A program made the translations under genes and the position numbers. From contig CARKXW010000005.1 in NCBI GenBank assembly GCA_949011515.1, positions 4,138-33,040 of the forward strand: a stretch of DNA of 28,903 bases, read 5' to 3'. This DNA comes from an uncultured Lachnospiraceae bacterium. GTDB taxonomy: Bacteria > Bacillota > Clostridia > Lachnospirales > Lachnospiraceae. The notes under the pieces were generated by a model. It ran no database searches, was not told the origin of the DNA, and saw only the letters and a program-made list of their open reading frames with translations. This document shows, piece after piece, positions 28,130-28,405 of this stretch (positions are counted from its first letter, which is position 1; every line of letters begins with the position of its first letter).

Positions 28130-28378
28130 AAAAATGTATTTGGAGAGCCTGCTAAAGCGGGCAGATGGGAGTTAGAGTGAAATCAAAGATTTCACTCATC
28201 CTGATTTGTAGGCCCGCCAAAGCGGGCAGATGGGAGTTAGTGTGAAATCAAAGATTTCACTCATCCTGATTTGTAGGCCCGCCAAAGCGAGCAGATGGGA
28301 GTTAGTGTGAGAAGTACTTCTAACTGCCTGTGGCAGTTTCCACTCACAGCAAAGGCTGTTTCGTGGAGAAGTTCACAC
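28130..28378 (+). repeat. modular structured repeat element, copy 3: three tandem 65-nt units plus a complete 74-nt closed multi-stem domain (28305-28378)
   Basis: GCAGATGGGA recurs at 28161, 28226 and 28291, an exact 65-nt period. Each unit has the GCCCGCYAAAGCGGGC and GTGAAATC-aaa-GATTTCAC hairpins. The domain has GTGTGA/TCACAC and ACTTCT/AGAAGT closing stems and a CTGCC-TGT-GGCAG internal hairpin. Confidence 0.65.
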
Positions 28379-28380
28379 CG

Positions 28381-28405
28381 AAAAACGCAAAAGACTGCGT
28401 TTTTC
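28381..28405 (+). terminator. intrinsic terminator ending the repeat element, 40 nt before the ORF start
   Basis: ACGCA-aaagac-TGCGT hairpin followed by TTTTT, preceded by an A-run. Confidence 0.55.

Follow-up and report, generated by a model that had tools for sequence, protein, structure and literature searches.

What kind of element is the array of hairpin-forming units at positions 28130-28405 of a 28,903-nucleotide (nt) stretch of DNA from an uncultured Lachnospiraceae bacterium (contig CARKXW010000005.1, positions 4,138 to 33,040; the whole stretch is called the window here), which lies immediately upstream of a gene for a protein of 135 amino acids (aa)? An initial annotation had described three loci of this kind (here locus 1, 17443-17679; locus 2, 22446-22609; and locus 3, 28138-28445, which contains the array) and had taken them for a structured repeat and candidate small-RNA family. 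The array probably belongs to a dispersed, non-coding, modular repeat family of mouse-gut Lachnospiraceae, analogous to the BOX, MIRU and REP2 repeats of other bacteria, which acts as a leader and supplies Shine-Dalgarno (SD) sequences to its neighbours. The repeat is dispersed, strand-biased and modular, it supplies stop codons to upstream genes and SD sequences and start codons to downstream genes, its hairpins are kept by compensatory change, and its units and modules are gained and lost. The family is real and apparently undescribed; each of its features has a precedent, and it is their combination and the breadth of carriers (at least 35 gut species) that stand out.

The motifs on which the initial annotation was built are present in all three loci, and its claim of a modular structured repeat family is borne out by several searches of the window. 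The core sequence GCGGGCAGATGGGAGTTAG occurs five times against zero expected occurrences, and the 24-mer GCGGGCAGATGGGAGTTAGTGTGA was found with up to three mismatches at positions 17486, 22509, 28157, 28222 and 28287, always on the plus strand and with none expected in shuffled sequences. A repeat search returned an 89-nt segment in five copies, with a spacing of 65 and 65 nt at 28107-28325 in locus 3, and a repeat pair (17463-17569 and 28264-28370) with 80% identity over 107 nt. Additionally, a covariance model of the long domain found after the units (hereafter the T-domain) matched three segments with 95.9, 77.4 and 41.5 bits (Table 1). The details of the proposal fared less evenly. The period of 63-65 nt holds and locus 3 is a tandem array, but locus 1 contains one unit and no array. 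The two long domains are likewise present in loci 1 and 3, and the hairpin that closes locus 3 is terminator-like, whereas the one that closes locus 1 was not called in the terminator scan, its T-run being paired with its A-run. The count of three copies was too low: copies on the minus strand at 12389-12480 and 162-232, a fragment at 14928-15000 and a second, degenerate T-domain in locus 1 had been missed, and the two minus-strand copies also contradict the constant orientation that had been proposed.

The repeat unit follows a regular layout. It reads TAG-N-GTG, the hairpin H2 (GTGAAA(T)-loop-(A)TTTCAC, with loops of 3-6 nt and variable sequence), a linker ((C)ATCCTGATTTG plus 3 nt), the hairpin H1 (GCCCGC-4 nt-GCGGGC, with TAAA, CAAA or TGAA as the loop), the segment AGATGGGAG, which holds the SD sequence GGGAG, then TTAG-N and a start codon, often as GTG-AAA. 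Units are stacked head to tail with a period of 63-65 nt (mode 64). After the start codon come H2 and the next unit in 43 of 193 modules; otherwise the start codon is followed by a long hairpin (either the T-domain of about 85 nt or one of several further types of sequence, each of which starts at this GTG), by a hairpin of the A-tract/T-tract kind or by an actual gene. The hairpin-SD module exists in subtypes that share this layout and differ in their stems (CCCGC/GCGGG, CCTGC/GCAGG, GCAGC/GCTGC, CCGCC/GGCGG, CACGC/GCGTG, ACAGC/GCTGT and GCGGC/GCCGC). No fixed pair of modules bounds the arrays, which have variable starting points and finish with a gene, a T-domain or a hairpin. As a module, the terminator-like hairpin is optional, often without a free U-tail and usually with a further hairpin-SD module and a gene downstream, and most arrays have no terminator and run directly into a gene.

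The family extends well beyond the window. An exact 19-mer from the core was used as the query, and the family counts given below rest on the loci listed for it together with the window. It was found at at least 120 loci in at least 35 species-level assemblies, which among the matches listed are all Lachnospiraceae and mostly metagenome-assembled genomes (MAGs) or isolates from the mouse gut (MGBC bins, Acetatifactor, Parablautia intestinalis D8-82, which is a cultured carrier, and IMSAGC_003/011). An iterated nhmmer profile recovered 196 copies of the linker-H1-SD module from these loci. A covariance-model search with a covariation check, as the initial annotation had suggested, was made for the T-domain: a second profile and the covariance model recovered about 40 copies, whose stems have changed in a non-random, compensated manner. 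No match to the repeat was found in viral and plasmid collections. The failure to assign the element to a named family also stands. Rfam gave no match at the gathering threshold over the whole window (over 28050-28500 the best sub-threshold scores were 13-23 bits, where the thresholds are 38-75), the primer sequences of BOX and ERIC gave no match (BOX was compared by the BOXA1R 22-mer, with zero matches at up to three mismatches), and no description of a Lachnospiraceae repeat of this type was found in the open-access literature.

The placement of the copies relative to genes carries most of the argument. Among 149 clusters, elements between co-directional genes lie on the gene strand in 80 cases and on the opposite strand in 6 (binomial p = 1.3e-17), and in 19 of those 80 the repeat fills the spacer, reaching to within 30 nt of the gene on either side. 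On the downstream side, the NTG of the last module itself opens a long open reading frame (ORF) in 35 of 146 clusters and the ORF start is 1-7 nt off in 16 more; the SD sequence of the element serves a downstream gene start in these 51 clusters, which include cheR and the 135-aa ORF of the window, and a same-strand ORF with an SD sequence begins within 400 nt in 112 of the 146. The start codon of the repeat is the true start of the served proteins, since the first or second position of the Pfam profiles aligns with residues 2-8 (LacI, residues 2-47 to positions 1-46 of 46; ROK, 4 to 1; GT2, 4 to 1; HAD_2, 8 to 2; CheR_N of the window, 6 to 2). On the upstream side (72 cases), the stop codons of the preceding genes fall at three positions of the element, one in each frame: the TAG of TTAG in 9-11 cases, the TGA of GTGA in about 9 and that of CCTGATTTG in 6, such that the element supplies the stop in about 26 of the 72. 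The genes downstream of the copies are functionally unrelated (ABC ATPases, LacI, ROK, HAD, GT2, CheR). The strand bias, together with edges that are in register with stop and start codons, indicates that the element is an intercistronic or 5'-leader cassette and not a free-standing gene.

Locus 3 is such a cassette: its three units, truncated T-domain, terminator-like hairpin and final hairpin-SD module form the 5' leader and the ribosome-binding site of the 135-aa ORF. The terminal module has a canonical SD sequence (GGAGG, 28435-28439) 6 nt before the ATG at 28446, and the repeat block runs to 28453. It is the only one of the three loci that precedes a plus-strand gene. The window is a chromosome segment of low GC content (about 38%), almost all of whose genes lie on the minus strand, and the array 28138-28453 opposes these prevailing leading-strand genes and is co-oriented with the single plus-strand gene downstream. 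A promoter-like site at 27968-27995 (a 10/12 match, within chance expectation) would make the array a leader, or 5' untranslated region (5' UTR), of about 440 nt. Additionally, the GTG of a unit opens an ORF of 22 codons whose TGA overlaps the next GTG, and the ORFs 28177-28245, 28242-28310 and 28307-28417 are chained in this manner by GTGA overlaps; the third extends across both the T-domain and the terminator hairpin to a stop at 28415-28417, which is 28 nt short of the 135-aa gene. In other genomes the mini-ORFs are mostly of 8 codons (20 of 43) or of other lengths, and the lengths of H2 and of the linker vary by 1-2 nt.

Covariation in the T-domain was measured on 34 copies (alignment A1) with a model of five helices (the closing stem P1, P2, P3, P4 outer and P4 inner). 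Standard pairs occupy 88.6% of the cells, compared with 25-46% when the partners are slid by 1-3 columns, and 17 of 30 pairs have changed on both sides. The compensated cells number 85 against 37 ± 4.5 in shuffles and the covariation score was reached by none of 500 shuffles, although recent amplification among the copies inflates these statistics. Compensated pairs include column 15:92 (U-A 14, A-U 13), 17:90 (C-G 19, U-A 4, G-C 3, A-U 1) and 11:99 (G-C 19, A-U 8). In H1, 156 copies have C-G at pair 18:27, 15 have T-A and 12 have T-G, and at least 8 different stem sequences are found in the same architecture; in H2, 49 copies have T-A at pair 7 and 10 have A-T. The compensatory changes that the initial annotation had reported between the two long domains of the window are therefore partly genuine: the swaps in P2 and P3 recur across the family, but the change of the closing stem from GTGAGA/TCTCAC to GTGTGA/TCACAC does not belong with them. 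Canonical copies read GTGTGAGA...TCTCACAC, and the copy at 28302-28379 has lost ...ACTAAGTCTC..., apparently by a deletion (the strain variant L129 keeps the longer version), so that its pairing register is shifted and no compensation took place. An outer helix around H1, between CATCC-TG of the linker and AGATG, had appeared in the minimum-free-energy fold and was dropped, the few T34-to-C variants being uncompensated.

Strain comparisons indicate that the arrays are labile. An identical 135-aa protein is encoded on 22 public contigs, and its leader contains three units in the window and in L121, four in L122 (65 nt longer, with a fourth copy of the unit 3 type) and point variants in L123, whereas the module set of L129 differs, with an additional hairpin, a hairpin-SD module and a long hairpin of a second type. 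Arrays are thus lengthened and shortened by slippage or unequal recombination. The comparison of presence and absence among relatives, which the initial annotation had also suggested, gave filled and empty spacers in different species as well: in the orthologous spacer after a ...LTGM* stop, L006 carries a 150-nt hairpin/hairpin-SD element 2 nt past the TAA and L114 carries none, and at a kinase-to-response-regulator junction L056 has modules of the element whereas L074 and L094 have a plain ribosome-binding site. Loci 1 and 2, on the other hand, showed no polymorphism among the strains retrieved. The H2 loops are characteristic of the genome (TCTTCGA in 13 of 17 in S29_Bin8, AAGGAT as the predominant loop in SRR14411252_bin.3, TTAAAA and TATAAAA in MGBC139783), which points to amplification or homogenisation within genomes. 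It was also observed that many assemblies break 32 nt upstream of the 135-aa gene, as a repeat would lead one to expect; at least five independent ones (L124-L130) end 31-32 nt upstream of it, inside the terminal hairpin-SD module. The repeat systematically breaks contigs when metagenomes with its carriers are assembled.

Several known repeats share parts of this design. BOX elements have an A-Bn-C (boxA-boxB(n)-boxC) architecture and are co-transcribed with neighbouring genes (PMC3049150). Like the present family, BOX of S. pneumoniae and S. suis is a composite intergenic repeat made of modules, with extensive predicted hairpins and a head-to-tail module number that varies between strains (here three versus four units). 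Unlike it, BOX belongs to a different host lineage and is enriched between convergent genes, whereas the Lachnospiraceae elements are mostly co-directional and on the sense strand, carry an SD sequence and a start codon that are used downstream, and lack flanking inverted ends of the boxA/boxC type. MIRU elements insert at start codons with a -4 coupling, and their insertion has been proposed to preserve translation of the gene downstream (PMC12548453, PMC3184786). The resemblance lies in head-to-tail units of 40-100 bp (63-65 nt here) in operon spacers and along the gene direction (80 versus 6 here), in a polymorphic unit number and in small ORFs that overlap the flanking stop and start by -4, to which the GTGA overlaps and the shared stops and starts may correspond. 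However, the Lachnospiraceae family brings its own SD sequence and hairpin where MIRU uses termination-reinitiation alone, it adds long structured modules, and its mini-ORF frame is not conserved between genomes; sequence homology to MIRU is unlikely, as the host (a low-GC Firmicute) and the base composition differ. In Neisseria REP2, the ribosome-binding site and the ATG of the repeat are fused to ORFs (PMC3184786). REP2 and the Borrelia plasmid inverted repeats are alike in lying immediately upstream of ORFs and in fusing a ribosome-binding site and a start to them (35 plus 16 of 146 clusters here), but REP2 carries a promoter and is not arrayed, whereas the present family has tandem units that abut upstream stops, a larger copy count and a wider species range. 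A search for sigma-70-like sites inside the repeat modules of the three loci found none except a weak match (9/12) at 17559-17588 of a quality to be expected by chance.

REP and BIME elements of enterobacteria also place GC-rich hairpins in transcribed intergenic spacers and form mosaic clusters, but the REPs of a BIME alternate in orientation and have no SD sequence or start codon, whereas the Lachnospiraceae units are all direct repeats with a strong strand bias. The roles proposed for REP and BIME elements include mRNA stabilisation and attenuation. Both roles also appear in the background given by one account (PMC3049150). The array ends are not inverted repeats of each other, unlike those of MITEs (miniature inverted-repeat transposable elements). 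The loops of H1 (4 nt) and H2 (3-6 nt, variable) differ from the hexaloops with A1 and G4 of the dual-hairpin targets of ANTAR proteins, and unrelated downstream genes, multiple copies in one spacer and some antisense copies distinguish the family from a riboswitch-type leader. Bacillus 5' stem-loop and STAB-SD stabilisers of mRNA (the cryIIIA leader, the processed gapA mRNA) have a hairpin and/or an SD sequence near the mRNA 5' end. With these the analogy is functional only (a possible block of 5'-3' decay), as they are single-copy leaders and not a dispersed repeat.

If the cassette reading is correct, the elements would be co-transcribed with their host genes and the hairpins would act on the mRNA. 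A GC-rich hairpin beside the SD sequence might insulate the region of initiation or keep it exposed, and might also protect the cistron downstream. A conserved single-stranded G/AUUUG lies 7-8 nt upstream of H1, and a single-stranded motif shortly before a hairpin is the arrangement known for RNase Y sites; the motif could accordingly be imagined as a processing point of the RNase Y type, after which the hairpins could stabilise the flanking cistrons. H2, the T-domain and the terminator-like hairpins would in turn protect the upstream RNA or terminate it, at least in part. A self-contained design of stop, hairpin, SD sequence and start would make insertions nearly harmless, as has been proposed for MIRU (PMC12548453).

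A number of points weigh against this reading. Locus 1 lies between two minus-strand genes and is antisense to both, and locus 2 lies at the 3' end of a minus-strand histidine kinase gene; two of the three loci first described are thus antisense to their neighbours, and no role as a ribosome-binding site is possible there. The loci were ascertained through one exact 19-mer, by which the 3' arm of H1 and the SD sequence are fixed in most copies, and the gene calls around them are simple longest-ORF calls. The orientation bias could partly reflect the direction of replication, because the genes of Firmicutes lie mostly on the leading strand. The initial annotation had taken the compensatory changes as a sign of selection on RNA, and the compensation itself is confirmed, but it does not separate selection at the RNA level from selection at the level of single-stranded DNA, and the structures could be selected as DNA. 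Wobble cells do not mark out the sense strand (in the T-domain 32 are G-U and 54 A-C, in H1 21 and 19), and folding is no weaker on the antisense than on the sense strand (z = -9.2 on the minus and -7.0 on the plus strand, both far better than shuffles); as a decider between RNA and DNA or between strands, the G-U versus A-C count was found uninformative and the folding energy non-discriminating. No clear target-site duplication was seen, the filled and empty sites compared being too diverged to show one. Multi-copy segments of at least 300 nt in the approximately 0.9 Mb that flank the 120 listed loci consist only of the arrays themselves, with no candidate transposase or master copy. Co-transcription with the host genes and every role of the hairpins at the RNA level are what we infer, and the case for relevance at the RNA level rests on the strand bias and on the codon-exact edges.

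The same observations bear on a purely DNA-level selfish repeat, in which a transposase or recombinase acting in trans would recognise the hairpins in the form of single-stranded or cruciform DNA (as with REP/RAYT or IS200/IS605-derived elements), the SD sequence, start and stop would be harm-reducing adaptations only, and insertion that is strand-specific with respect to replication would produce the orientation bias. This explanation is doubtful. The wobble counts and the stable folding of both strands agree with it, as do the genome-specific variants, the copy numbers that differ between strains and the antisense copies tolerated at loci 1 and 2. A conserved GATTTG plus 3 nt before the hairpin is reminiscent of the guide tetranucleotide that adjoins REP hairpins and may serve as a lead only. 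However, the units stand head to tail, unlike the inverted pairs of REP doublets, and the flanks of the listed loci contain neither a transposase gene nor a multi-copy coding segment. Moreover, a replication bias cannot explain edges that register exactly with stop and start codons, and the array of locus 3 is opposite to the leading-strand genes, yet co-oriented with the plus-strand gene downstream.

A stronger form of the cassette reading, which we consider unlikely, would make the hairpin-SD module a clade-wide post-transcriptional operator acted on by a host factor (for example an RNA-binding protein, RNase Y or the ribosome) to which it would owe its persistence in at least 35 species, with the arrays as tracks for ribosome loading or relay. 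If this were true, hundreds of unrelated genes would form one regulon of translation or mRNA stability, and leader translation through the three GTGA-coupled mini-ORFs of locus 3 would decide read-through and expression of the 135-aa gene. A cis-regulatory leader of the attenuator or riboswitch type, in which the T-domain would be an aptamer for a ligand or protein and the terminator hairpin the expression platform for the 135-aa gene and others, is less likely still. The order of T-domain, terminator-like hairpin, SD sequence and gene at 28302-28446, found also in L015 and L053, speaks for it together with the strong covariation of the T-domain helices and the promoter-like site at 27968-27995 that would put the whole array in a 5' UTR. 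But the many copies in one genome stand beside unrelated genes (the ABC ATPases, LacI, ROK, HAD, GT2 and CheR genes named above) that form no coherent set, T-domains are found downstream of genes as well, within the ends of ORFs (162-232), as a tandem (17501-17652) and antisense to their neighbours, the terminator module can be absent and frequently has no free U-tail, strains with an identical protein differ in their modules, and no Rfam family matches. The initial proposal of independent small non-coding RNA genes, with plus-strand transcripts ending at the terminators, is very improbable: the fold is stable (z = -7), the helices covary and terminator-like hairpins close two loci, but no promoter module was found in the repeat at the three loci, it is embedded in gene spacers on the gene strand and fused to the stops and starts of coding sequences, most arrays run into a gene without a terminator, the copy number is variable, and the window itself has minus-strand copies and antisense loci. 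Tandem translated mini-genes can be dismissed almost entirely, for although the window ORFs chain through GTGA, each after a good SD sequence, and ORF 22464-22532 encodes a 22-residue peptide similar to that of the 65-nt unit (MKSKISLILICRPAKAGRWELV), a conserved peptide was rejected when the frame proved to differ between genomes (8 codons in 20 of 43 mini-ORFs, or other lengths), the start codon lies in the H2 stem and it is base pairing and not codons that is conserved; translation of short ORFs through the array may nonetheless occur.

An intercistronic cassette of this kind has several practical sides. Hundreds of copies in abundant, little-studied gut Lachnospiraceae affect annotation and assembly, as ORF ends and true starts are set by the repeat. 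The family offers natural portable modules of translation initiation (hairpin, SD sequence and start) for bacteria that are hard to engineer, and the array length, which differs between strains, could serve as a typing marker of the variable-number tandem repeat type. The cultured carrier Parablautia intestinalis provides a system for studying how small repeats colonise operon junctions without breaking expression, a question that stands equally for BOX and MIRU. The copies of the window and their parts are collected in Table 1.

Table 1. Repeat copies, their modules and the served gene in the window
Feature	Position	Strand	Description
Locus 3, unit 1, 5'-truncated	28138-28195	+	H1 GCCTGC-TAAA-GCGGGC 28147-28162 (one G-U pair); SD GGGAG 28167-28171; GTG 28177
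Locus 3, unit 1, H2 hairpin	28177-28195	+	GTGAAATC-AAA-GATTTCAC
Locus 3, unit 2, 65 nt	28196-28260	+	linker TCATCCTGATTTGTAG 28196-28211; H1 28212-28227; SD 28232-28236; GTG 28242; H2 28242-28260
Locus 3, unit 3	28261-28309	+	linker; H1 28277-28292 (GCCCGC/GCGAGC, one C-A mismatch); SD 28297-28301; GTG 28307
Locus 3, T-domain (helices P1-P4), truncated derivative	28302-28379	+	without ...ACTAAGTCTC; 77.4 bits; alignment A1 and comparison with strain variant L129
Locus 3, terminator-like hairpin	28380-28405	+	GAAAAACGCA-AAAGAC-TGCGTTTTTC, then ATTTCTATTT; called terminator-like
Locus 3, terminal linker and second-subtype hairpin-SD module	28406-28445	+	linker ATTTCTATTTGA with TGA 28415-28417; H1c GCCGCC-AAA-GGCGGC 28418-28432
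135-aa ORF, no Pfam match	28446-28853	+	ribosome-binding site supplied by the repeat
Locus 1, single linker-H1-degenerate SD module	17463-17507	+	H1 17476-17491; SD reads GGTAG; GTG at 17506
Locus 1, full-length T-domain	17501-17586	+	covariance model 95.9 bits
Locus 1, second, degenerate T-domain without helix P3	17585-17652	+	nhmmer match 17588-17646, E = 1.8e-9; row in alignment A1
Locus 1, A-tract/T-tract hairpin, bidirectional type	17652-17679	+	GAAAAACGCC-CGAATTA-GGCGTTTTTT; just downstream of a minus-strand methyl-accepting chemotaxis protein (MCP) gene ending at 17742
Locus 2, part 1	within 22453-22609	+	partial SD; H2 22464-22482; linker; H1 22499-22514; SD 22519-22523; H2 22529-22547; linker
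Locus 2, part 2	within 22453-22609	+	subtype hairpin GTTGCGGC-AAA-GCCGCGAC 22561-22579; SD GGAGG 22582-22586; extra ATGGAGGTTAG 22599-22609
Two degenerate linker-hairpin-SD modules	12389-12480	-	directly upstream of cheR; end in AGGAGTTTCA-GTG, the cheR start codon at 12388
T-domain copy	162-232	-	41.5 bits; ORF 211-1170 (-) ends inside
Fragment	14928-15000	+	T-domain 3' end, identical over 29 nt to 17555-17583, then a degenerate unit (ATCATGATTTAGG...ATCATGGGAGTTAG)

The minus-strand gene order of the window is MCP, solute-binding protein, a protein of 821 aa that has a Major Vault Protein shoulder domain, mnmG, the chemotaxis operon (cheR, cheB, cheA, cheW, mcp) and rsmG. Two minus-strand reading frames end in copies of the repeat. 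The stop codon of the histidine kinase gene (TAA, 22587-22589) lies inside locus 2 and is the reverse complement of the TTA in the GGTTAG of the repeat, so the repeat supplies a stop codon on its antisense strand too. The last codons (...KCEKSF*) and the stop of ORF 211-1170, which encodes 319 aa without a Pfam match, come from the T-domain copy at 162-232, and the insertion of the repeat therefore rewrote a protein C-terminus. A further segment of 28 nt at 26103-26130 on the minus strand, inside a glycosyltransferase ORF (25617-26813), is 89% complementary to 17590-17617 of the degenerate T-domain and was set aside as probably a chance match.

The 821-aa bacterial protein (14959-17424, minus strand), directly downstream of locus 1, has a Major Vault Protein shoulder domain of the eukaryotic type (PF11978, E = 1.2e-20), and the Vault_3 repeat matches it weakly. 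The chemotaxis operon at 4752-12388 on the minus strand is complete (cheR, cheB, a response regulator, cheA, cheW, mcp and a cheY-like gene) and is inserted so as to separate mnmG from rsmG, which are ordinarily neighbours close to the origin of replication. Three copies of TCATCTTACAAAGAAAAA(CATC), with spacings of 54 and 66 nt, lie at 12530-12676 in the spacer of 530 nt from mnmG to cheR and could form an array of operators or promoters. Another repeat, unrelated to the main one and about 130 nt long, MITE-like and without an Rfam match, was found at 5237-5373, with terminal inverted repeats GTAACAGTTCAGCCATGC ... GTATGGCTGAATAGTAAC and inner arms of 31 nt; copies of it that are 96-98% identical occur in the MAG MGBC139783 (L019, 7418-7545; L061, 4024-4158; L039, 378-506), in both orientations and near arrays of the main repeat.

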